Source: Escherichia coli (GTDB lineage: Bacteria > Pseudomonadota > Gammaproteobacteria > Enterobacterales > Enterobacteriaceae). Taken from it: a stretch of DNA of 64,000 bases. The position numbers were made by a program, and so were the translations under genes. The notes under the pieces were generated by a model. The model made no database searches. It worked only from the letters and a program-made list of their open reading frames with translations, and was not told the origin of the DNA. The stretch's first letter is position 1. Each line of letters begins with the position of its first letter. Location of the stretch: NCBI RefSeq assembly GCF_045037415.1, contig NZ_CP173438.1; one strand, given 5' to 3'. This document shows, one piece after another, positions 60 through 61,999 of this stretch.

Positions 60-893
60 ATGCCGATGTTTCTCTTTTTACGCCGTTTACGCCATTCACC
101 CGCCGCGTTTTGCGGGTTGATAATTATCCTGTTATTGATGCTAATTGCGCTCTTCGCGCCGTGGCTGGCACCTCACGATCCTAACTGGCAGGATGCGGCG
201 GCGCGATTACAAGCACCGAGTCGTCAGCACTGGCTCGGCACTGACAGTTACGGGCGAGACCTACTTTCACGTTTAATCTACGGCAGCCGCCCGGCACTGG
301 GGCTGGTGGCATTGGTGACAATCATTACACTCCCGGTCGGTCTGCTGATTGGCATTTTAGCCGGGTACTACGGCGGCTGGCTGGAACGCGTGCTGATGCG
401 TTTTACTGACATAGTAATGTCAATGCCGCGTTTAATTCTGGCTTTTGCTTTTGTTGCCATGCTGGGGCCGGGGCTGGTTAACGGCGCACTGGCCCTTGCA
501 TTAACCACCTGGCCTGCTTATGCGCGTCAGGCACGGAGTGAGATCCAACGTCTGCGACACAGTGATTATCTTGCCGCCGCAGAAATGATGGGCATCCGCG
601 GCAGGCGTCTGCTGGCTGGTCATATTTTGCCATTGTGCCTGCCATCTGCCATTGTCCGTCTGGCGCTGGATTTAGCGGGTATCATTCTGGCGGCTGCTGG
701 TCTGGGTTTTCTTGGGCTTGGTGCTCGCCCGCCAATGGCGGAATGGGGAGCCATGATCGCCGACGGTATGCAGGTCATTTTTGATCAATGGTGGATTGCC
801 GCCGCTCCCGGCGCAATTATCTTAATTGCCAGTCTGGCCTTTAATCTGCTGGGTGATGGCTTGCGCGATGTTCTGGAGCCTCAACATGACTGA
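60..893 (+). CDS. ABC transporter permease, peptide/nickel (DppC/NikC-like) family
   Basis: 277-aa hydrophobic ORF with the N-terminal and membrane-segment pattern of DppC/NikC-type permeases; ATGA-overlapped by the next gene. Confidence 0.75.
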   Translation: MPMFLFLRRLRHSPAAFCGLIIILLLMLIALFAPWLAPHDPNWQDAAARLQAPSRQHWLGTDSYGRDLLSRLIYGSRPALGLVALVTIITLPVGLLIGILAGYYGGWLERVLMRFTDIVMSMPRLILAFAFVAMLGPGLVNGALALALTTWPAYARQARSEIQRLRHSDYLAAAEMMGIRGRRLLAGHILPLCLPSAIVRLALDLAGIILAAAGLGFLGLGARPPMAEWGAMIADGMQVIFDQWWIAAAPGAIILIASLAFNLLGDGLRDVLEPQHD

Positions 894-1722
894 CTCACGT
901 CTTAGTATCAACAATCTCTGCGTCGATTATCCGGAGTCCCGGGTCGTCAACAATGTCAGTTTTACATTAGGCAATGAACGTCTGGCGCTGGTCGGTGAGT
1001 CGGGTTCAGGTAAGTCCATGACCGCCCGCGCCCTGATGGGGCTGGTGCGTAAACCGGGTGTAGTAACCGCGGACACACTTAACATTCTGGGGCGTGATGC
1101 ACTCACCCTTAACGCGCGTGGATGGCAACAGTTGCGCGGTAACGATATCGCGATGGTATTGCAAGATCCGCGTTACGCGCTTAATCCAGTAAAGACAGTA
1201 AAAGCGCAACTGGAAGAGGCGCTTACGCTCCATCAACGTCTGAACCGCCGCGAGAAAGAAGAGAAAATAAACACCGCAATTCAGGCTGTCGGCCTCAATA
1301 CGCGAGTACTGCAAAGCTATCCTCGTGAACTTTCTGGCGGCATGGGGCAGCGAGTGATGATTGCAATTGCGCTCATCAACGATCCCCGGGTATTGATTGC
1401 CGATGAGCCAACATCAGCACTAGATGTGCGCCTGCGTAATCAGATTCTGGAACTGCTGGTTACCCAGTGTGAACAACGTCAGATGGCAATGTTGCTGATC
1501 AGTCACGACCTGCCATTAGTTGCCCAATTTTGCCATCGGGTGCTGGTGATGTATCAGGGAAATAAGGTGGATGAAATGCACGCTGCTGCGCTACCTACAG
1601 CAACGCATCCTTACACGCGCACACTGTGGACTTGCCGCCCAAATGCACAAACTTACGGGCAGATGCTGCCGACGCTGGACAGGACGGCAATGACGCCGGA
1701 GAAATACCATGACGATTGTTGA
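886..1722 (+). CDS. ABC transporter ATP-binding protein (DppD/NikD-like)
   Basis: Walker A GESGSGKS, ABC signature LSGG and Walker B LIADEPTSALD in the translation; start chosen at MTDSRL (ATG 886) overlapping the upstream stop. Confidence 0.8.
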   Translation: MTDSRLSINNLCVDYPESRVVNNVSFTLGNERLALVGESGSGKSMTARALMGLVRKPGVVTADTLNILGRDALTLNARGWQQLRGNDIAMVLQDPRYALNPVKTVKAQLEEALTLHQRLNRREKEEKINTAIQAVGLNTRVLQSYPRELSGGMGQRVMIAIALINDPRVLIADEPTSALDVRLRNQILELLVTQCEQRQMAMLLISHDLPLVAQFCHRVLVMYQGNKVDEMHAAALPTATHPYTRTLWTCRPNAQTYGQMLPTLDRTAMTPEKYHDDC

Positions 1723-2413
1723 AATTAATCACTTACAGGTGACTTTTGCTGAGAAAACCGCAGTTTCTGCCGCCAGTTTTTCGGTTAATGCCGGAGAGAC
1801 ATTTAGTTTAATTGGCGAATCAGGCTGCGGAAAATCCACGATTTTGCGCGTAATTGCTGGATTACAGCGCGACTGGCACGGTCAGGTGTCACTGTTTGGG
1901 CACACCATCAAACCAGGAATGCGTTTTCAGGGCGATCTCCGCCGCAATGTGCAAATGGTGTTTCAGGATCCCTATGCCTCGTTGCATCCCAATCATACTC
2001 TGTGGCGAACGCTGGCTGAACCACTCAAAATTCGTGGCGAAAGAGAAATAGAAAAACGCGTCCAGACTGCACTGGAACAGGTTGGCTTGCCTTTCGACGC
2101 CGCTCGTCGCTACCCACACCAGCTTTCCGGTGGTCAACGGCAACGTGTGGTTATTGCTCGCGCCCTGTTGTTACGACCACAACTTCTTCTGCTGGATGAA
2201 CCCACCTCGGCGTTGGATATGTCGGTACAAGCGGAAATCCTTAATTTGTTGAATCAACTTAAGCTGGAACACCAAATGACATATCTGCTGGTCAGTCACG
2301 ATGCCGATGTCATCGCGCATATGTCTGATCGAGCGGCATTGATGTCCGAGGGAAAAATTCAGCGATTTTTTGATCGCGACGCCATGGAAAAGGGGGAACA
2401 TCGGATGGATTAA
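1709..2413 (+). CDS. ABC transporter ATP-binding protein (DppF/NikE-like)
   Basis: Walker A GESGCGKST, signature LSGGQRQR, Walker B LLLDEPTSALD; start overlaps previous gene. Confidence 0.8.
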   Translation: MTIVEINHLQVTFAEKTAVSAASFSVNAGETFSLIGESGCGKSTILRVIAGLQRDWHGQVSLFGHTIKPGMRFQGDLRRNVQMVFQDPYASLHPNHTLWRTLAEPLKIRGEREIEKRVQTALEQVGLPFDAARRYPHQLSGGQRQRVVIARALLLRPQLLLLDEPTSALDMSVQAEILNLLNQLKLEHQMTYLLVSHDADVIAHMSDRAALMSEGKIQRFFDRDAMEKGEHRMD

Positions 2414-2523
2414 AAAACCTGACATTGCATTAATTCATTCTGCTTTCAGGTCTTTTTACAGTTGTTTTTTTGTCCACCCGAACACTTTATACTGTCTCTC
2501 CCCTACCAAACTTCATTATCAAA

Positions 2524-3213
2524 ATGAAAAAAATTATCACTTTGATGTTGTTTTTGACATTCTTTGCCCACGCGAACGACTCCGAGCCTGGCAGCCAGTA
2601 TTTAAAGGCAGCAGAGGCCGGAAACCGACGCGCACAATATTTTCTTGCCGACAGCTGGTTTAGCTCCGGCGATTTGAGCAAAGCCGAATATTGGGCACAG
2701 AAAGCCGCCGACAGCGGTGATGCCGATGCCTGCGCGCTGTTGGCGCAGATCAAAATCACCAATCCGGTCAGTCTGGACTATCCACAAGCAAAAGTGCTTG
2801 CCGAGAAAGCAGCGCAAGCGGGCAGTAAAGAAGGTGAAGTAACGCTGGCGCATATTCTGGTAAATACGCAAGCGGGTAAACCGGATTATCCAAAGGCGAT
2901 TTCGCTGTTAGAAAACGCCTCGGAAGATCTGGAGAACGACTCTGCCGTCGATGCCCAAATGCTGCTTGGTTTGATTTACGCCAACGGCGTGGGCATTAAG
3001 GCCGACGATGACAAAGCAACCTGGTATTTCAAACGTAGCTCTGCGATTTCCCGAACCGGTTATTCCGAATACTGGGCGGGAATGATGTTCTTAAACGGTG
3101 AAGAGGGTTTTATCGAGAAGAATAAACAAAAGGCGCTGCACTGGTTGAATCTGAGCTGTATGGAAGGATTTGATACCGGTTGTGAAGAGTTTGAAAAATT
3201 AACTAACGGTTAA
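2524..3213 (+). CDS. yjcO: Sel1-repeat (TPR-like) periplasmic protein YjcO
   Basis: Signal-peptide start MKKIITLMLFLTFFAHA, then repeated Sel1-type motifs; 229 aa from this ATG, matching recalled YjcO length; convergent with gltP. Confidence 0.8.
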   Translation: MKKIITLMLFLTFFAHANDSEPGSQYLKAAEAGNRRAQYFLADSWFSSGDLSKAEYWAQKAADSGDADACALLAQIKITNPVSLDYPQAKVLAEKAAQAGSKEGEVTLAHILVNTQAGKPDYPKAISLLENASEDLENDSAVDAQMLLGLIYANGVGIKADDDKATWYFKRSSAISRTGYSEYWAGMMFLNGEEGFIEKNKQKALHWLNLSCMEGFDTGCEEFEKLTNG

Positions 3214-3655
3214 GGTAGGCGCAGCAAACGTCGCATCAGGCATTGATGTCGGATGCGGCGTAAACGCCTTATCCGACCTACAAAAATCACGCCAAATCAG
3301 GCTATTGCGCTGTCTGACGTAGGCCTGATAAGACACGTCAGCATCGCATCAGACATTGATGCCGGATGCGGCGTAAACGCCTTATCCGACCTACAAAAAT
3401 CACGCCAAATCAGGCTATTGCGCTGTCTGGCGTAGGCCTGATAAGACGCGGCAAGCGTCGCATCAGGCGTTGATGTCGGATGCGGCGTAAACGCCTTATC
3501 CGACCTACAAAAATCACGCCAAATCAGGCTATTGCGCTGTCTGGCGTAGGCCTGATAAGACGCGTTAAGCGTCGCATCAGGCGTTGATGTCGGATGCGGC
3601 GTAAACGCCTTATCCGACCTACAAAAATCACGCTACATCAGGCTATTACTCAGTC
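3214..3655. repeat. Tandem array of four ~114-bp REP/BIME-type palindromic units
   Basis: Unit beginning gtaggcctgataagacgcg..cgcatcaggc..gatgtcggatgcggcgtaaacgccttatccgacctac recurs at 3319, 3432 and 3546 with few substitutions, after a partial first copy. Confidence 0.85.
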
Positions 3656-3701
3656 AGGCATCCACACATTGCCGGGTGGATATCCCCCCGGCAATCTTCA
3701 A

Positions 3702-5015
3702 TTACTGATCTGCTGTTTTATCAAATTTGCCCAACATTTCACGCTCGTAGGCCAGCGCTTTTTTACGGTCAAATTTGTGTTCCCACTTGGCAATCACCAG
3801 CACCGCCAGCGCATTACCCACCACGTTCAGCGCAGTACGCGCCATATCGAGGATACGGTCAACACCGGCAATAAACGCCAGACCTTCCAGCGGAATACCT
3901 ACGCTACCCAGCGTTGCCAGCAGCACCACAAACGACACGCCCGGCACGCCAGCAATCCCTTTCGAGGTCACCATCAGCGTCAGCACCAGAATGATTTCCT
4001 GCCAGATGGACAGGTCAATGCCATACAGCTGAGCGATGAAAATAGCGGCAATACTTTGATACAGCGTCGAACCATCAAGGTTAAAAGAGTAACCGGTCGG
4101 CACCACGAAACTGGTGATCGACGCCGGTGCACCGTAGGCTTCCATCTTCTCAATAATTCGCGGCAGCACGCTTTCAGAACTGGCAGTAGAGTACGCCAGA
4201 ATCAGCTCATCTTTCAGAATACGAATCAGGATCCAGACACTTAACCCGCACAGGCGCGCCACAATTCCCAGTACGACCAGCGCGAAGAACAGAATGGCGA
4301 AATGCACCAGCAGCACCAGTTTCGCCAGTGGCCACAGAGAAGAGAAACCAAAGTTAGCCACCGTCACCGCAATCAGCGCAAACACACCCACCGGCGCATA
4401 ACGCATCACCATGTGAGTCACTTTAAACATGGTTTCAGAGATGGAGCGGAAAACGGTCACCAGCGGTTCACGATGCGTCGCGGGCAGGGATGAAAGCCCC
4501 AGACCAAACAGCACCGAGAAGAAGATGATCGGCAGCATTTCGCCTTTCGCCATCGACGCCACGATGTTCGTCGGCACCAGCGACAAAATCGTGCCCATAA
4601 TGCCGTGGGAACTGCTTTGTACCGCTTCCGTAGTGCTCTGATATTTCGAGATATCGACGGTCGCCAGCTGCGACATATCCACCCCGGCACCGGGCTGGAA
4701 GACGTTCGCCAGAGTGATCCCCAAAATGATGGCGACGGTGGTGATCACCTCGAAGTAGATAATGGTTTTCGCACCAATACGCCCGAGCTGTTTGGCATCA
4801 CCAACACCCGCGATACCCACCACCAGCGTGGAGATCACAATCGGCACAACAATCATTTTGATCAGATGGATGAAGATATCACCCGCCGGAGAGAGCAAAT
4901 TGACGACCAGCCAGTCGCGGCTGTCGCTATGGTAGTGCAGGTAGCTTCCCAGGAGAATGCCCAGCACCATAGCAAACAGAATCTGCCAGGCCAGGCTGAA
5001 TTTTATATTTTTCAT
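3702..5015 (-). CDS. gltP: Glutamate/aspartate:proton symporter GltP
   Basis: 437-aa ORF starting MKNIKFSLAWQILFAMVLGILLG, a dicarboxylate/amino-acid:cation symporter recognised as GltP. Confidence 0.93.
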   Translation of the reverse strand: MKNIKFSLAWQILFAMVLGILLGSYLHYHSDSRDWLVVNLLSPAGDIFIHLIKMIVVPIVISTLVVGIAGVGDAKQLGRIGAKTIIYFEVITTVAIILGITLANVFQPGAGVDMSQLATVDISKYQSTTEAVQSSSHGIMGTILSLVPTNIVASMAKGEMLPIIFFSVLFGLGLSSLPATHREPLVTVFRSISETMFKVTHMVMRYAPVGVFALIAVTVANFGFSSLWPLAKLVLLVHFAILFFALVVLGIVARLCGLSVWILIRILKDELILAYSTASSESVLPRIIEKMEAYGAPASITSFVVPTGYSFNLDGSTLYQSIAAIFIAQLYGIDLSIWQEIILVLTLMVTSKGIAGVPGVSFVVLLATLGSVGIPLEGLAFIAGVDRILDMARTALNVVGNALAVLVIAKWEHKFDRKKALAYEREMLGKFDKTADQ

Positions 5016-5357
5016 CAGAATAACTTCCTCAATGGAGCGCCGTTCCCCGTTCAGAAACGCGAGAACGTGACATACTGCCAGGGCATGAATTGTGTTGCGT
5101 TGGTTTGTAGATTTTTTTAACGCTTATGATCAGTATCATTTGCGCGGTATGTTGCGCAACCCTTTAACAACAGAGCTTTTCGCTGCATTAATGCATAATA
5201 ACGCGAGTTTATGGCAGGATTAATGAATAACCATTTGTTATAGAAGGATTTTTATTTGTTTAATCTGCAATAATACTGATTAGTGATTATTTTTGATTAT
5301 ATGTTCATTCGATTATTTTTTATGCAGCTCAATAACATAATCTTCATCACCAGATGA

Positions 5358-5954
5358 TTAATCTGATCTCCGCTGCAACAATTTCGCCATATTAATCGAC
5401 TCGACCAGCTGTGTCCGGTTGATCCGGGGTGAGTTGAGATCCATCACTTTTTGCCATAGTTCGATGGCTTGCGCGTAATTCGCCTGCATAAACGCATCGG
5501 AAGCCAGCAGCATCAGAGCGGTGATTTCGTTAGAGTCCAGCGCGAGGGCTTTGTCGATCATTGCGCGAGCCTGGACGGTCATATGTTGGCTGGCCTGGTA
5601 ATACAGCACCGTCGCCAGCGCCGCATACAGTTCAGCGTTCTCACCACGTAGTTGCAACGCCTGACGGTACGCCAGCAGCGAATTGCTGTAATCGTTTTGC
5701 CACAGATAATACTCGCCCAGTAACGCCCACTGTTCGCTGTTTTGTGGATTAGCACGGATTTTATCCTGCAATGCCTGAAGCTGCGCTTCCGGGGTTTGCT
5801 GGCTGGCAAACTGATGCAGCGGATCGCGCTGACGCTGATACTCCGCACGTACCGCCTGCCATTTTGGACTTAACAGATAACTGCCGACACAGAGAAATAC
5901 CATCAAAATCGTGAGTGTTGTCAGCATTTTCACCGGTATTTGGGGCTGTTTCAT
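5358..5954 (-). CDS. nrfG: Formate-dependent nitrite reductase complex subunit NrfG (TPR protein)
   Basis: Start set at [11 protein letters not shown] (198 aa); TPR-like content; last gene of the nrf operon; 4-bp overlap with nrfF. Confidence 0.85.
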
Positions 5955-6334
5955 CGCTTCGCCCTCACTCGCCAGAGGATCAGTGCCATCAGCAGTAACA
6001 ACACTACTGGCAGCGCCCACAACACCAGAGTCTGACCCGTTAACGGTGGGTTATAGCGAACAAAATCTCCGTAGCGTTCGGTCATCCAGCCAATGATTTC
6101 GACTTCACTTTTCCCCTCTTCCACCATGGTGTAAACCTGATGGCGCATACTGACTGCCACCGGCGCATTGGATTCCAGTAAGTTCTGATTCTGGCACTGC
6201 GGACAACGTAACTGGCTGGCAATATTTAACGCCTGTTCCTGTTGTTGCGGATTAGCGAATTGCCAGGTGTCTACAACCTGAGCGCGCGCAAAACAGGTAA
6301 ATAACAGCAGTAGCGTGAGAAGCCCTTTATTCAT
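5951..6334 (-). CDS. nrfF: Cytochrome c-type biogenesis protein NrfF (CcmH-like)
   Basis: 127-aa ORF with signal peptide and LRCPQCQNQ motif typical of CcmH/NrfF. Confidence 0.85.
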
Positions 6335-8009
6335 CGCGCTTCCTTCCCCGCCATCCGCTTAACAATGCGCCCGCAATCATCAACAATCCTCCCCCCCAGA
6401 TCCAGCGCACACCGCTTTGTACATACAAACGAAATGCGTAACGATCCGCTCCGGTTTTCTCTCCCATGACCGCATACCAGTCATGGATGCCGTTCCAGCG
6501 AATCGAGGGTTCCATCATTTGCTGACGGCGTGCTTCGTAAAAACGCCGCTCCGGCGTTAATTCACCAATGCGTTGCTGATGGTCAAACAGTGCCACTATC
6601 GCTTTTTCGCTGGTGTAATTGCCTTTGGCTTGCAGATCGAGGCGCTCAAAACGGAAGGTGTATCCTGCCAGCGTCACCTGCTGACCCGGCTGTAAATTCA
6701 GGCTGATCTCCTGACGGCTGACGCTGGAAACCACGATCCCCGCGGCAAATAACAGCACGCCCGCATGCGCCAGCAGCGTCGGAAGCCGCGCGCGTTTGCC
6801 AGAGACAAACGTCGCCAGCACAATCACCACCAGCATCAACAGAGCAAACGGTAACGTCGCGCGGTTAAAATACGGCGCGCCAACGGAGAGGCGTCCCCAG
6901 CCCAGCAGGCCGTAAATCATCGGATAAAGCGTTCCCACCAGCACGATCAGTAGCACTGCGCAAAACAGCAACAGCGTAGCGAGGATTAACATTTCCCGCG
7001 ATAACCCCGAAAAACGCACCGCCGGGCCACCGTCCCGCGCTCGCCAGCCATACAGAGCCAGAGACGCAAGGCTAATCAGTACAAACAGGCCGAACAACGG
7101 CACGGCGCGGACGTTATCCAGCGCGAACGCATGAACCGAAACCAGAATGCCAGAACGGACAATCAACGTGCCCAGCAGCGACAGCATCAGAGTAACTATC
7201 GTCAGCAACAGCGACCAGTGGCGGAAAATCCCCCGCTGGCGTGTCAGGGATAAACTGTGCAGCAGCGCTGTGGCAGAAAGCCAGGGTAGTAAAGAGGCGT
7301 TTTCCACCGGATCCCAGAACCACCAGCCGCCCCAGCCCAGTTCGCAATAGGCCCACCAGGAACCGAGGATGATCCCCGCTGTTAATGCGCTCCAGCCAGG
7401 TAGTGCCCAACGCCAGCAAATTCGGGCGCAGGTACCATCAAACTCGCCGCGCAGTAAACTCGCCAGCGCCACGCTCGCCGCCACCATCAAACCGCCGTAG
7501 CCGAGATAAAGCAGCGGTGGATGAAAGATAAGACCGGGATGTTGCAGCATCGGATTGAGATCGCGGCCTTCGATTGCTGGTGGAAATATCCGCACGAAGG
7601 GATCGGACCACAGCACCACAAACAGTAGCAGTGCGGCGAGCATGAGAGATAAAACGGCTAGCGTCAGCGGAAATAGCGGATCGGTTTGCTGCCGGTAATG
7701 CCAGGCAAACAGCGCGCTCCAGGCGGAAAGCAGCAGCACCCAAAGCAACAGCGAACCTTCATGACCGCCCCACACCGCCGCCAGTTTGAGTTCCCACGAC
7801 AGCAGGCTATAGCTATGTTGGGCGACATAAATAACCGAGAAATCGCTGATGAGAAAACAATACGTCAGTACGCCAAAGGCGAGCAGCAGGAGCGCGAACT
7901 GCGCCAGAATGCCGATGCAAGTGAGTCGCATCATGGCAGGCCAGCGCAACCGCACTCCCGCGAAGGCCGTCAACGGGATCAACACGTTGACCCCGAGACT
8001 TAACAACAA
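6327..8009 (-). CDS. nrfE: Haem lyase NrfE (CcmF-like)
   Basis: Large polytopic membrane ORF with CcmF-like WGGWWFWDPVENASLLPWL motif; exact start uncertain. Confidence 0.85.
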   Translation of the reverse strand: MLLSLGVNVLIPLTAFAGVRLRWPAMMRLTCIGILAQFALLLLAFGVLTYCFLISDFSVIYVAQHSYSLLSWELKLAAVWGGHEGSLLLWVLLLSAWSALFAWHYRQQTDPLFPLTLAVLSLMLAALLLFVVLWSDPFVRIFPPAIEGRDLNPMLQHPGLIFHPPLLYLGYGGLMVAASVALASLLRGEFDGTCARICWRWALPGWSALTAGIILGSWWAYCELGWGGWWFWDPVENASLLPWLSATALLHSLSLTRQRGIFRHWSLLLTIVTLMLSLLGTLIVRSGILVSVHAFALDNVRAVPLFGLFVLISLASLALYGWRARDGGPAVRFSGLSREMLILATLLLFCAVLLIVLVGTLYPMIYGLLGWGRLSVGAPYFNRATLPFALLMLVVIVLATFVSGKRARLPTLLAHAGVLLFAAGIVVSSVSRQEISLNLQPGQQVTLAGYTFRFERLDLQAKGNYTSEKAIVALFDHQQRIGELTPERRFYEARRQQMMEPSIRWNGIHDWYAVMGEKTGADRYAFRLYVQSGVRWIWGGGLLMIAGALLSGWRGRKRDE

Positions 8010-8064
8010 CGCCAGAAAACCGACTTCAGGAAGGAATACGTCCAGAAACCACCTCTGTTCTGGC

Positions 8065-9021
8065 TTACGCCACCGTTAACTGCCCGGCGTAGAGAATGAA
8101 AAAGCGCAGCATCAACACGCCGACCAGGCTGGCCCCACATGCCGCCAGCACGGCAGGAATGCCGGAACTGCGATTGACCCACGGTTTGAGCAACATTGGC
8201 ACAATCAGCCCCAGCCCGGCGACACCAAGCCAGAACCACCACGTCCAGAAACCGCCGCCCAATGCCGCCACCAGCGCACGCACTTTACCGTCATCGCCCA
8301 GCGCCAGACCGACAAAAAACGCCACCAGCAGGAAGATTTCACCCCATACCACGGGGATTTCCATACGGTGTACAAAGTGCGCTTCCGTGGAATGCGGGTT
8401 ACTGCGTTGGCGTATCGCCATGGCGATCAGCGCCACCGCCGCACCGGACGAGATGCCGGAGAAGAGGAACAGCACCGGCAGGATCGGGTTATTGAGGAAC
8501 GGATACGATTTCAGCGCCGACAGCAGAAAGCCGGTATAAGCCCCCAACAACACCGCCAGCACCAGCATCAATGTTTCCAGTCCGCGATGAACGGGCGTCA
8601 GCAGGCTCAAGACCTTTTGCACGATCCCCAGCTTCGGCAACCAGCGTTGTTGCAGGGCAAGCAAATCATGTTCAAAGATTTTCGCCAGCCACAGCACCAG
8701 CACCACCATGTAAAGCTGAAACAGCATCACCCCCATCGACATCACCGAGGTAAAACTGTAGTGGAACATCAGCTTCCAGAAGGTCCACGGTCTTGTCAGG
8801 TGGAAGACGAGGATCAACAGACCGAGGATCACCGCGCCAGGCCCGACAATCAGCGTGGTGCGCAGCAACGTACTGTCTGCACCGCCTGCCTGCGGGTAGA
8901 AGCGACGTAACAGCACGGCCAGTGTCACCAGACCGGCAGAAATACCAATCAAAAACAGGTAGATGGCAATCGGCCAGTCCCACACCAGCGATTCAAAATG
9001 AAATGCGGAAGTCTGCGTCAT
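8065..9021 (-). CDS. nrfD: Nitrite reductase membrane subunit NrfD
   Basis: 318-aa polytopic membrane ORF in the nrf operon position; length matches recalled NrfD. Confidence 0.85.
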   Translation of the reverse strand: MTQTSAFHFESLVWDWPIAIYLFLIGISAGLVTLAVLLRRFYPQAGGADSTLLRTTLIVGPGAVILGLLILVFHLTRPWTFWKLMFHYSFTSVMSMGVMLFQLYMVVLVLWLAKIFEHDLLALQQRWLPKLGIVQKVLSLLTPVHRGLETLMLVLAVLLGAYTGFLLSALKSYPFLNNPILPVLFLFSGISSGAAVALIAMAIRQRSNPHSTEAHFVHRMEIPVVWGEIFLLVAFFVGLALGDDGKVRALVAALGGGFWTWWFWLGVAGLGLIVPMLLKPWVNRSSGIPAVLAACGASLVGVLMLRFFILYAGQLTVA

Positions 9022-9650
9022 TGGCTCACCTCCCCGTATTTAAACGGTACGCGGTACAGCTTCGGTTTGGTGCCCAGCGCCAGCTTGTAGCGGTAAGTGG
9101 GCTTCTGGCGCAGCAGTTGCGAAATCTCACTGTTGGGATCGTCCAGATTGCCAAACGTCAGCGCCTTCGTCGGGCAAGCTTCAACGCACGCGGGCAGCTT
9201 ACCGGCCTGCAAATGGGTCTTACGGCAGAAATCGCATTTGTCCGCCGTCTTCGTGACCGGATGGATAAAGCGCACGCGGTACGGACAGGCGGCGATGCAG
9301 TACTGACAACCGACGCAGAGATCCGGATTAACATCGACAATCCCACTGGCAGCGTCGCGAAAAGACGCACCGGTCGGGCAGACGTCAACGCACGGCGCAT
9401 GATCGCAGTGCTGGCAAGACTTACGGAAGAAGCGATATTTCACATCAGGAAATTCGCCCTGCGGCTCGCTACGAATAATCGTCAGGCGCGAGACGCCTTC
9501 CGGCACCTTGTTCACTTTCCGACAAGCATCCATACAGGCGGTACAGCCGATGCATAACGACTCGTCATGCACCATGCCGTAACGCACCCCATTGATATTC
9601 AACGTTTTCGCCACCACGCGCCCTGCGGTGCCGCTGACGGCGGCCAGCAC
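9018..9650 (-). CDS. nrfC: Nitrite reductase Fe-S subunit NrfC, 5' end frameshifted (possible pseudogene)
   Basis: Four-cysteine ferredoxin motifs (CIGCTACMDAC, CQHCDHAPC, CVGCQYCIAAC). The expected ATG (9690-9688, overlapping the nrfB stop) is +1 out of frame with the body; the in-frame ORF begins at a GTG after the twin-arginine motif. Confidence 0.6.
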   Translation of the reverse strand: MLAAVSGTAGRVVAKTLNINGVRYGMVHDESLCIGCTACMDACRKVNKVPEGVSRLTIIRSEPQGEFPDVKYRFFRKSCQHCDHAPCVDVCPTGASFRDAASGIVDVNPDLCVGCQYCIAACPYRVRFIHPVTKTADKCDFCRKTHLQAGKLPACVEACPTKALTFGNLDDPNSEISQLLRQKPTYRYKLALGTKPKLYRVPFKYGEVSQ

Positions 9651-9686
9651 ACCGACGCCGGTGAGAAACTGGCGACGAGAACCAGG

Positions 9687-10259
9687 TCATGGCTGCTCCT
9701 TAAGCAACGGAACAGACGCCGGGTTAAAGTTCGGATTGGTGCGCTGATCGCTGTGGCAATCGACGCAAATCTTAATCCGTCCTTTGTCACTTAACGTCTG
9801 CATCGTATCTTGCTGTGGATGCAGGGAATGGCAGCTGGCGCACGCCACTTTGGTTACGTGGACATCGTGCGGCCAGAATGCTTTTTGCAACTGTTCCGGC
9901 AGATGGCAGGACATACAGACGCTGTTCTGCTCTCCAACCTTGTACATCGGCTCGTTAAAGCGCATCACATCTTTCACCCCTTCGCGGTGTTGCGGTGATG
10001 GCTGGCCGTGACAGTTGGTGCAGGTGACCGGCAGTTTGTTATTCGGGTTGATAACGGAAGCATGTTTGCCATGCATACCTTCGGTATCTGGCTTATGACA
10101 GTCCAGACAGGCGGCATCCGGGTTACGCTGCTGGGTAACTTCGTAGCGATCACCAGATGCCTGCGCCGCAGGGGTAGCGGTAATTCCGTTCAGGCTCCAC
10201 AACAGGCCCGACGCCAGCACCCCGGCAGTTAATAACGAACGTAATACGCTCATATTCAC
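9687..10259 (-). CDS. nrfB: Pentahaem cytochrome c NrfB
   Basis: Signal peptide plus five CxxCH haem motifs (CLDCH, CTNCH, CMSCH, CASCH, CVDCH). Confidence 0.88.
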
Positions 10260-10297
10260 TCCATTGTGTTTTCCGCCCCTTGCGAGGCGGAACGGGG

Positions 10298-12125
<1,828 letters not shown>

Positions 12126-24567: not shown

Positions 24568-24996
24568 TGCTATCAATTCCCTGCCTGTTTATACCCGGTT
24601 ATTGCAAGGTGAAACCCTGGCTACCGACGTCTTTAGATAAATCTTACGGTATAAATAGCACTTTTGCCTGATATAAAATTGAGAACCTTTTTAATCGTCA
24701 CCAGGATGACGATAATTCATTGATCTTAAAAATTAATCACCTTCAGGAATGCAGAGGCGGCGGGAAGATATACCCTTAATGCCGCTGAAAAAACACATAA
24801 TCTGTACGGCAATAAAAGTCACGGCCTAATCTGGCTAACAAACAACCAATTGTGATATAGTTCACAAAATTCATGAAACAAACAGAGTGTTTCATTTTTG
24901 TGTTCTGCAAGCCCCGCGATAGCCAGAGTGTATCACGCCTCCCGTGAACAACGCCGCGCTGTCCAGGGCATCAGCTCTTTTTCGAGGAATTGTTTG

Positions 24997-25278
24997 ATGG
25001 CTACCCTCACCACTGGCGTGGTTCTTCTTCGCTGGCAACTTCTTAGTGCCGTAATGATGTTTCTGGCCAGCACGCTCAACATCCGTTTTCGTCGGGCTGA
25101 TTATGTCGGGCTTGCAGTGATCAGCAGCGGTTTGGGCGTAGTTTCCGCCTGCTGGTTCGCAATGGGGTTGCTTGGCATCACAATGGCGGATATCACCGCC
25201 ATCTGGCACAACATCGAGTCGGTGATGATAGAAGAGATGAATCAGACACCGCCACAATGGCCAATGATTTTGACTTGA
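24997..25278 (+). CDS. yjcB: Small membrane protein YjcB
   Basis: 93-aa ORF from MATLTTGVVLLRWQLL; followed by a strong terminator. Confidence 0.6.
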   Translation: MATLTTGVVLLRWQLLSAVMMFLASTLNIRFRRADYVGLAVISSGLGVVSACWFAMGLLGITMADITAIWHNIESVMIEEMNQTPPQWPMILT

Positions 25279-25284
25279 TATGTA

Positions 25285-25314
25285 GAAGCCTCCATAACGG
25301 AGGCTTCTTTTTTA
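25285..25314 (+). terminator. Rho-independent terminator downstream of yjcB
   Basis: Stem gaagcctcc/ggaggcttc with 5-nt loop followed by ttttttat. Confidence 0.6.
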
Positions 25315-25376
25315 TGGCTGGCAGATGCTTTAATCATCCACCTTAAAACAATATACCCTATTGTTTTAAAGACAAA

Positions 25377-25913
25377 TCAGAACGGAATATCGTCATCAAA
25401 GTCCATCGGCGGCTCGTTAGACGGCGCTGCCGGAGCGGACTGCTGCGGGCGAGACTGCGCGCCGCCGCTGAACTGATTGCCACCCTGCGGCTGCTGAGGC
25501 TGACCCCAACCGCCCTGCGGCTGACCACCACCGATATTGCCACCTGCAGGAGCGCCACCACCCTGACGACCACCCAGCATCTGCATGGTGCCGCCAACGT
25601 TCACCACGACTTCTGTGGTATAGCGATCCTGACCGGATTGATCGGTCCATTTGCGGGTACGCAGCTGACCTTCGATATAAACCTGAGAACCTTTACGCAG
25701 ATATTCGCTGGCTACTTCTGCCAGTTTGCCGAACAGCACAACGCGGTGCCATTCAGTCTGCTCTTTCATCTCGCCGGTGGCTTTATCACGCCAGGATTCG
25801 GAAGTAGCCAGCGTAATGTTGGCAACTGCGCCACCATTTGGCATGTAGCGTACTTCCGGGTCCTGACCCAGATTACCAACGAGAATAACCTTGTTTACGC
25901 CTCTGCTGGCCAT
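25377..25913 (-). CDS. ssb: Single-stranded DNA-binding protein
   Basis: 178-aa [47 protein letters not shown] with Gly/Gln-rich tail ending DFDDDIPF. Confidence 0.97.
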
Positions 25914-38933: not shown

Positions 38934-40352
38934 TTATCCGTGTAATGCTTTATTATTCAAGGCCATTGCTGCTTCGTGGATGACTTCGCTTAATGTCGGA
39001 TGCGCATGGATCGCACAGGCAATATCCTCGCCAGAGGCGCTAAAAGTCATCGCCAGCGCAATTTCATTAATCAGCTCCGATGCCTGCGGGCCAACAATCG
39101 CTCCGCCAAGTACGCGGTCAGTGTGTTTATCACTGTATAACGTGCAACGCCCACCTTCCTGGCCTAATGCTAAGGCGCGACCGTTACCGGCAAACAGAGA
39201 ATTTCCTTTGTTAAAGACTCTGCCAGCGGCTTTCAGTGAGGCCTCGTTTTCCCCTACCCACGCAACTTCCGGTTGGGTGTAAATCACCGAAGGGATCAGC
39301 GCAAAATTAATCGGCTCTACCACCAGTCCGGCAATTTGATCAGCCACCACTACACCTTCAGCCATCGCTTTATGCGCCAGCATCGGCCCTCGCACGACAT
39401 CACCAATTGCCCACAGCCCGGCTTTCCCGGTACGGCATAAGTTATCGACGGCAATACCGCCACGGTTATCGGCTTCAAGACCGAGTTGCACGAGATCGAC
39501 ACCAGAAAGTCGCGGTACACGTCCAATGGCAAGAATTAATTTATCGAAGCGGCTTTCTTCTCGCTTCTCACCCTGCCGCCAGCGCACATGCACACCGTCA
39601 TCCCGTTGTTCAATAGCCTCAATCTCTACTGCCAGTTGCATTTTCATCCCACTGGCAATCATTGCTTTACGGACTTCGTTCGACAGGCGAGCTTCCAGTG
39701 CAGGCAAGAACGTTGGCGCCATCTCCAGCAACGTGACGTCTGAACCAACCCGATTCCACACAGACCCCAGTTCAAGGCCAATCACGCCAGCGCCGATCAC
39801 ACCGAGACGCGGCGGCACTTCGCTCAATGCCAGGGCGCCACGATTGTCGAGGATCTGTTGATTATCAATGGTAACGCCAGGCAGCTGACGCGGCTGAGAA
39901 CCTGTTGCAATCACTACATTACGGGCGTGAAGGTGTTGATCGTTTACACGTAATTGCCAAATCTCATCCTGAGCACATTCTAACGTTGCGAGGCCGCACA
40001 GGTGCTTCACTTTATTTTTCTTAAACAGCAAGCTGATGCCCATTGTCAGGCGGCTTACTATGGCGTCTTTACGTTGAATCATCGCAGCTGCATTGAAAGA
40101 TACGCCGTCAACATTAACGCCATGAATGCTCGCCTCATGCTGCACTTGCGCGTACAGTTCGGAAGATTGCAGCAACGATTTTGACGGAATACAGCCGACA
40201 TTGAGACACGTACCGCCCGGCGAAGGTTCGCCCTGTGCATTAACACCATCATCAATACATACTACGGAAAGCCCATTCTGCGCAGCCCGCAGTGCCGCTA
40301 CGTAACCACCTGGCCCCCCCCCCATAACTGCCACATCAAAAATTGTACTCAT
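38934..40352 (-). CDS. Dihydrolipoyl dehydrogenase (E3) paralogue
   Basis: 472-aa ORF with FAD fold GGGPGGYVAA and redox-active disulfide GGTCLNVGCIPSK. Confidence 0.88.
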   Translation of the reverse strand: MSTIFDVAVMGGGPGGYVAALRAAQNGLSVVCIDDGVNAQGEPSPGGTCLNVGCIPSKSLLQSSELYAQVQHEASIHGVNVDGVSFNAAAMIQRKDAIVSRLTMGISLLFKKNKVKHLCGLATLECAQDEIWQLRVNDQHLHARNVVIATGSQPRQLPGVTIDNQQILDNRGALALSEVPPRLGVIGAGVIGLELGSVWNRVGSDVTLLEMAPTFLPALEARLSNEVRKAMIASGMKMQLAVEIEAIEQRDDGVHVRWRQGEKREESRFDKLILAIGRVPRLSGVDLVQLGLEADNRGGIAVDNLCRTGKAGLWAIGDVVRGPMLAHKAMAEGVVVADQIAGLVVEPINFALIPSVIYTQPEVAWVGENEASLKAAGRVFNKGNSLFAGNGRALALGQEGGRCTLYSDKHTDRVLGGAIVGPQASELINEIALAMTFSASGEDIACAIHAHPTLSEVIHEAAMALNNKALHG

Positions 40353-61982: not shown

Positions 61983-61999
61983 CGCGGTTCAGAGATATG

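Follow-up and report, generated by a model that had tools for sequence, protein, structure and literature searches.

An extra base at the start of nrfC in an ST131-like Escherichia coli genome is very likely a consensus error at a methylated GGTCTC/GAGACC site

The nrfC gene in the window, a stretch of 64,000 nucleotides of E. coli DNA (contig NZ_CP173438.1), is written with one extra base that shifts its 5' end out of frame. We consider it very likely that this base is a sequencing or assembly error in the consensus, linked to a methylation motif, and not a mutation of the strain. The signature found in the window's genome points to such an artefact, for which Nanopore-only sequencing is the most likely source. 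As far as can be judged from the sequence, it is very probable that the nrfABCDEFG operon of the strain is intact, that NrfC is exported normally by the Tat route and that formate-dependent nitrite reduction is normal.

The start region of nrfC

The window is identified by its sequence as ST131-like E. coli, and its first 25 kb match O25b:H4 ST131 genomes with an identity of at least 99.98%. The nrfABCDEFG genes lie contiguously on the minus strand (5358–11734), according to the open reading frames of the window and in agreement with the PGAP tables of its relatives. At the nrfB/nrfC junction the minus strand reads ...GAGCAGCC ATG ACC TGG TTC TCG TCG CCA GTT..., and nrfC as written occupies 9018–9690 (minus strand, 673 nt, frameshifted). 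As described in a preliminary description of this DNA, the ATG at 9690–9688 overlaps the stop codon of nrfB as ATGA and is out of frame with the body of nrfC. This TGA terminates nrfB, which comprises 188 aa from the PGAP start (9687–10253, minus strand). The same description had read the body frame upstream as TGA-P-G-S-R-R-Q-F-L-T-G-V-G-V-L-A, with a stop directly before the twin-arginine (Tat) signal, and this reading is correct.

Two open reading frames remain at this position, both on the minus strand. A 41-aa frame (9565–9690) opens at the native nrfC ATG and is a by-product of the extra base. The residual body frame of 210 aa (9018–9650) starts with GTG at 9650 and does not contain the SRRQFL twin-arginine motif. 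This GTG is the first ATG, GTG or TTG codon of the body frame, and the RR motif lies upstream of it. The codons of the body frame that separate the TGA from RR are CCT GGT TCT, none of which is an NTG or ATT that could serve as a rescuing start. Taken at face value, the text would thus deprive NrfC of its Tat signal, as had been anticipated.

The extra base was placed by alignment with the relatives WP3-S18, Esc22, Esc29, Esc3, Esc4 and 81009. It corresponds to position 9680 of the plus strand, equivalently 9681, where an A is doubled (CGAG[A]ACCAGG). On the minus strand it is a T in codon 4 of nrfC and converts GGTCTC into GGTTCTC. The suggestion that a single additional base in tggTtctcg accounts for the frameshift is borne out by this alignment, and deletion of base 9680 restores a reading frame of 672 nt for 223 aa. 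The resulting NrfC is 100% identical to WP_000220293.1 of the ST131 strain 81009, and its twin-arginine motif SRRQFLTG, located in the body frame, becomes contiguous with the ATG. A homopolymer, which the preliminary description had considered as source of the error, does not exist here: the true sequence has a single T at this site and the context is a methylation motif. Homopolymer slippage was ruled out on this basis.

The repaired protein matches the NCBIfam model TIGR03149 (cyt_nit_nrfC) over residues 2–222 with 414.1 bits at a cutoff of 377.6. It contains 16 cysteines, including those of CIGCTACMDAC, CQHCDHAPCVDVC and CVGCQYCIAAC, which represent ferredoxin-type clusters for four [4Fe-4S] centres; Pfam Fer4 families are on record for the NrfC product. 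The score above the model cutoff, the Tat signal, the cysteine clusters and the position in the operon all characterize the repaired product as NrfC. The nrf operon is otherwise intact in the window.

A Dcm site fused to an Eco31I-type site

The true start of nrfC in ST131, ATG ACC TGG TCT CGT CGC, contains CCTGGTCTC, in which the Dcm site CCTGG is fused to GGTCTC. In the window the Eco31I-type site is written as GAGAACC at 9677–9683 of the plus strand (true sequence GAGACC, which is GGTCTC on the nrfC strand), and the Dcm site CCAGG/CCTGG occupies 9682–9686. Both sites share two bases (9682–9683), namely the GG of GGTCTC on the nrfC strand, and the modified bases are consequently close together. 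The indel falls precisely where the two base pairs modified by the Eco31I system adjoin, T3:m6A and m5C4:G of GGTCTC.

In the ST131 methylome, M1.EcoMI, which is identical to M1.Eco31I, methylates GAG(m6A)CC at 100% of the sites, and GGT(m5C)TC is predicted for the opposite strand (PMC4659465). The EcoMI system of ST131 is encoded on GI-leuX and is identical to Eco31I (Forde et al. 2015, PMC4659465). Walking along GI-leuX of the PacBio reference EC958 led to the Eco31I-type locus at 4,977,699–4,982,256; it was not found near the start of the EC958 RefSeq record, which begins at thrL. The locus comprises an adenine methyltransferase, a cytosine-5 methyltransferase and an endonuclease. An Eco31I-type system is present in 634 of 5,426 complete E. 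coli genomes, Nissle 1917 among them. Strain 439, a carrier of the extra base, possesses the full locus. In the carrier Esc25 both methyltransferase genes are present and the endonuclease gene alone is interrupted; the endonuclease gene is also disrupted in Esc7. The window shares with the Eco31I/EcoMI system of ST131 (PMC4659465) the recognition sequence GGTCTC/GAGACC, with the locus itself being found in EC958 and carrier 439. It differs in that it contains only target sites, whereas the system acts in trans from a distance of more than 200 kb.

Sporadic indels of the window and their distribution

Every difference between the window and six relatives was listed, for 25 kb and then for the whole 64 kb. 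Apart from the A inserted at 9680 of the plus strand (CGAG[A]ACC, found in 8 records), two sporadic indels were detected. The second lies between pdeC and yjcB at 24681–24687, where the plus strand has GAGAACC for GAGACC with the extra A at 24684 (TTGAG[A]ACC, 13 records). The third lies between lexA and dinF at 61986–61990, where the plus strand has GGTTC for GGTCTC and a C is missing after 61988 (5 records). This missing C is the one predicted to be m5C-methylated. Hence, all three sporadic indels in 64 kb fall inside GAGACC/GGTCTC sites, for which the chance probability is approximately 2e-10. Only six such sites exist in the 64 kb as compared, and the ST131 consensus has a seventh one in yjcO. 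In the window all three lesions occur together.

A 241-base query centred on the nrfC site matches 5,420 complete E. coli records, and it aligns without a gap in only 8 of them (A1.S1.126, 439, 446, 463, Esc2, Esc14, Esc25 and Esc26). The alignment to reference nrfC sequences that had been proposed as a check therefore shows close relatives without the extra base and an ungapped match in only 8 of about 5,420 records. The A at 24684 is present in 13 of about 5,425 records (C25, A1.S1.126, 439, 446, 447, 463, three UID strains, Esc3, Esc4, Esc22 and Esc29), and the C after 61988 is missing in 5 of about 5,425 (two UID strains, Esc1, Esc13 and Esc27). Carriers of all three lesions are confined to recent accessions from few projects (the Esc series, 439/446/447/463, the UID strains, A1.S1.126 and C25); no older accession was found among the 8, 13 and 5 carrier records, and the projects of the 24684 carriers overlap those of the nrfC carriers.

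In those records with the extra base that were opened, PGAP annotates nrfC as 'frameshifted', and the gene is intact in ordinary ST131 genomes such as strain 81009. The Esc chromosomes are near-identical, with lengths of 5,156,486 to 5,156,531 bp, yet they disagree at nrfC: the gene is frameshifted in Esc26, Esc2, Esc25 and Esc14 and intact in Esc22, Esc29, Esc3 and Esc4. This disagreement among sibling assemblies argues against an inherited, lineage-specific lesion. Furthermore, the four-gamete test fails, since all four combinations were seen for 9680 versus 24684 and for 24684 versus 61988. A single origin of each lesion is therefore impossible. A lineage-specific pseudogene was ruled out on these two grounds, the disagreement of near-identical Esc assemblies and the occurrence of the motif indels in all combinations. 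A pseudogene is expected to be inherited by a coherent clade and confirmed by independent chemistry; the lesion is instead homoplastic and restricted to few projects.

The same signature in strain 439 and in other assemblies

For replication, carrier 439 (NZ_CP183084.1, 3,043,500–3,140,000) was compared with the PacBio reference EC958 over approximately 86 kb of GI-leuX. Seven of the 12 differences are located in 6 of the 17 aligned motif sites (P ~3e-18). All four single-base insertions in 439 lie in the motif, three as GGT[T]CTC and one as GAG[A]ACC, and the nrfC lesion of the window has exactly this signature. Substitution-type miscalls, GAGACC to GAAACC or GGAACC, were observed at the same motif. 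One insertion each was found in fecB, a GTPase-family gene, the gene of a GRP sugar transporter and yjhG, which PGAP annotates as 'frameshifted' in 439 and as intact in EC958. For these four genes of 439, a complete genome of RefSeq, the pseudogene status is probably false.

The truncated 210-aa product was also looked up in public assemblies, which yielded ten loci for comparison with the intact sequence. In nine of the ten the lesion lies inside the CCTGGTCTC motif, and at least six kinds can be distinguished: an additional T (Esc25 and one Logan run), an additional G, loss of a T from the GGTCTC part (two assemblies), loss of a T from the CCTGG part, a G>A exchange (two assemblies), and G>A together with an additional A. 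Three Logan runs have lesions here. In the majority of these assemblies, A5>A4 or T5>T4 deletions are found at other places in nrf as well and disrupt nrfA, nrfB or nrfD. Many kinds of lesion at one motif, accompanied by classic long-read errors, are what base-calling ambiguity predicts and mutation does not.

A separate case is the ENA metagenome scaffold TAKE23-1 scaffold_47, in which codon 6 of nrfC is changed from CAG to TAG just outside the motif, with one further C>T within 300 bases. This nonsense codon may reflect either a true allele of nrfC or a C>T miscall.

A proposed origin of the extra base

The Eco31I system of GI-leuX methylates the A of GAG(m6A)CC, as detected in EC958, and is predicted to methylate the first C of GGT(m5C)TC; Dcm adds m5C on both strands. 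The window's genome presumably carries Eco31I-type methylases, as suggested by its near-identity to ST131 clade C genomes. Adjacent m6A and m5C, together with the m5C of Dcm, would distort the pore current, and base-caller and polisher may then mis-size the motif. The window's genome would have been assembled from native Nanopore reads without effective correction. The error is stochastic: the same motif randomly gains or loses a base elsewhere in the window and in other assemblies of the lineage.

For one carrier, C25, the procedure is published: it was sequenced exclusively with ONT R10.4.1, called with Guppy hac, assembled with Flye and polished with medaka, without short reads (PMC10652846). 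For the other carriers we infer a Nanopore-only origin from the recent accessions, the length jitter among siblings and the homopolymer deletions. Nanopore-only ST131 assemblies were reported to share 401 false SNPs, 98% of them at Dcm sites (MicroPIPE, PMC8235852), and it is well described that Nanopore errors induced by methylation differ from run to run of one clone (Lohde et al. 2024, PMC11610573; Hammerhead, PMC11610603). The present case resembles these published errors in its strain-specific motif, its stochastic occurrence between replicate assemblies and the false differences that it creates between isolates. A further likeness is that, within the carrier lists, no assembly with an older accession shows the lesions. 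Most published errors, in contrast, are A/G or C/T substitutions at Dcm or RACG-like motifs, exchanges within the purines or within the pyrimidines. Here a single-base indel is the dominant signature; it lies inside GGTCTC/GAGACC, where m6A and m5C are located on adjacent base pairs, and the outcome is a set of false frameshift pseudogenes (nrfC, fecB, yjhG, yjcO and others). This difference counts against the artefact. Searches of the available literature combining the motif with Nanopore errors retrieved the ST131 methylome paper and otherwise unrelated work, and no paper that describes GGTCTC/GAGACC as a Nanopore error motif or an indel-dominated signature.

Alternative explanations

If the frameshift were real, export of NrfC would cease, the NrfCD quinol dehydrogenase would be non-functional and NrfB and NrfA would no longer receive electrons. 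A genuine +1 insertion would thus turn nrfC into a pseudogene, with loss of the twin-arginine signal, an unassembled NrfCD complex and loss of periplasmic formate-dependent nitrite reduction. The text as written offers no rescuing start, PGAP calls nrfC 'frameshifted' in records with the same base, and the nonsense codon of the metagenome scaffold indicates that real loss of nrfC may occur somewhere. In addition, the window carries a private missense SNP in nrfA only 1 kb away (position 10731, Ser335Leu), which we count against the artefact and which might be a sign that selection on nrf is relaxed. In an assembly, the true loss-of-function alleles that respiratory operons have in host-adapted Enterobacteriaceae can look identical, as single-base frameshifts near the 5' end. 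True pseudogenes, however, are passed on within clades and allow confirmation by an independent chemistry, and the nrfC lesion is neither clade-consistent nor independent of chemistry. Near-identical assemblies differ in it, it is homoplastic relative to two other motif indels, and it is located in a rare methylated motif, like all other sporadic indels of the window. In strain 439 the same signature accounts for four further false pseudogenes, the nrfC motif shows no fewer than six different lesions in error-rich assemblies, and the remaining nrf operon is intact. The preliminary description had left the choice between inactivation of nrfC and a sequencing or assembly indel. The indel is strongly supported, and inactivation is very unlikely in view of the motif, the rarity of the lesion and its toggling among siblings.

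A different kind of real event would be given if Eco31I sites were indel hotspots in vivo, for instance as a consequence of restriction or repair where the DNA is modified, with recurrent indels toggling nrfC and other genes. Such reversible changes of GGTCTC would switch nrfC, fecB, yjhG and yjcO off and on, which would amount to a restriction-modification-linked phase variation of anaerobic respiration. The recurrence of events at the same motif in unrelated strains and the disrupted endonuclease gene in Esc25 and Esc7 are in line with a hotspot. It is nevertheless less probable still than an ordinary pseudogene. Although 634 genomes have the system, the 8, 13 and 5 carriers include no older accession; the lesions co-occur with classic homopolymer deletions, a repeat tract for slippage is missing, and the substitution-type miscalls at the same motif fit signal ambiguity and not one mutational process. 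Hardly conceivable, finally, is a bypass of the frameshift by programmed +1 ribosomal frameshifting or a non-canonical start, by which NrfC would still be made and exported. Nothing specific speaks for it, apart from the fact that PGAP accepts a non-canonical CTG start for the neighbouring nrfE. The three codons between the TGA and the RR codons do not include NTG or ATT as a start, the sequence shows no evident slippery or shifty-stop context, and the arrangement is absent from about 99.8% of the genomes and is therefore not a conserved recoding site. Alternative start and recoding were ruled out for the lack of such a start codon and for the missing conservation.

With the methylation-linked consensus error as the preferred explanation, there is probably nothing biological in the nrfC lesion, and the Nrf nitrite reductase of the strain is most likely functional. 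The value of the observation is a warning that concerns an important pathogen lineage. Recent 'complete' genomes built exclusively from long reads show random single-base indels and miscalls at GGTCTC/GAGACC, which enter RefSeq as 'frameshifted' pseudogenes (nrfC, fecB, yjhG, yjcO and others). Such errors would inflate cgMLST and SNP distances between outbreak isolates and distort surveys of pseudogenes and gene loss. They can be screened for without reads, by searching for GGTTCTC/GAGAACC, or GGTTC, where relatives have GGTCTC.

Additional observations

The nrfA exchange at position 10731 changes codon 335 on the minus strand from TCG to TTG (Ser335Leu) and was found in none of the best matches of the approximately 5,420 complete genomes; none of the complete genomes searched combines it with the extra base. 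It was considered as a motif error and rejected, because none of the methylation motifs known from ST131 covers it. The exchange may represent either a true private SNP or an error arising at random.

At codon 34 of yjcO (2617–2623 of the window), strain 81009 has GGAGACC, which contains the Eco31I site, and the window and WP3-S18 have GGAAACC, resulting in a different YjcO protein accession. All six Esc assemblies that were read have GGAGAACC at this position and an annotated 'frameshifted' yjcO, a further instance of the insertion artefact. For the A of the window, either a real SNP of the lineage or a substitution-type miscall like the GAGACC to GAAACC change in 439 is conceivable.

WP3-S18-ESBL-08 contains an island of approximately 12 kb between yjcB and ssb (686–12119 of the extracted region, corresponding to about 25,000–25,380 of the window). 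Besides two hypothetical genes, it carries genes for an Avs4 anti-phage nuclease, an AbiGi antitoxin and two integrases; the island is absent from the window and from the Esc genomes. At position 40313, in a poly-C tract of the second lpdA copy, WP3-S18 has one extra C and a 'frameshifted' lpdA, and the window and the Esc genomes show the intact length. Probably, this is a homopolymer error in the WP3-S18 reference and not in the window.

For nrfE on the minus strand, the 572-aa PGAP model WP_071550262.1 starts at a CTG (8043–8045), which is located 12 codons upstream of the first TTG in the list of open reading frames (560 aa).
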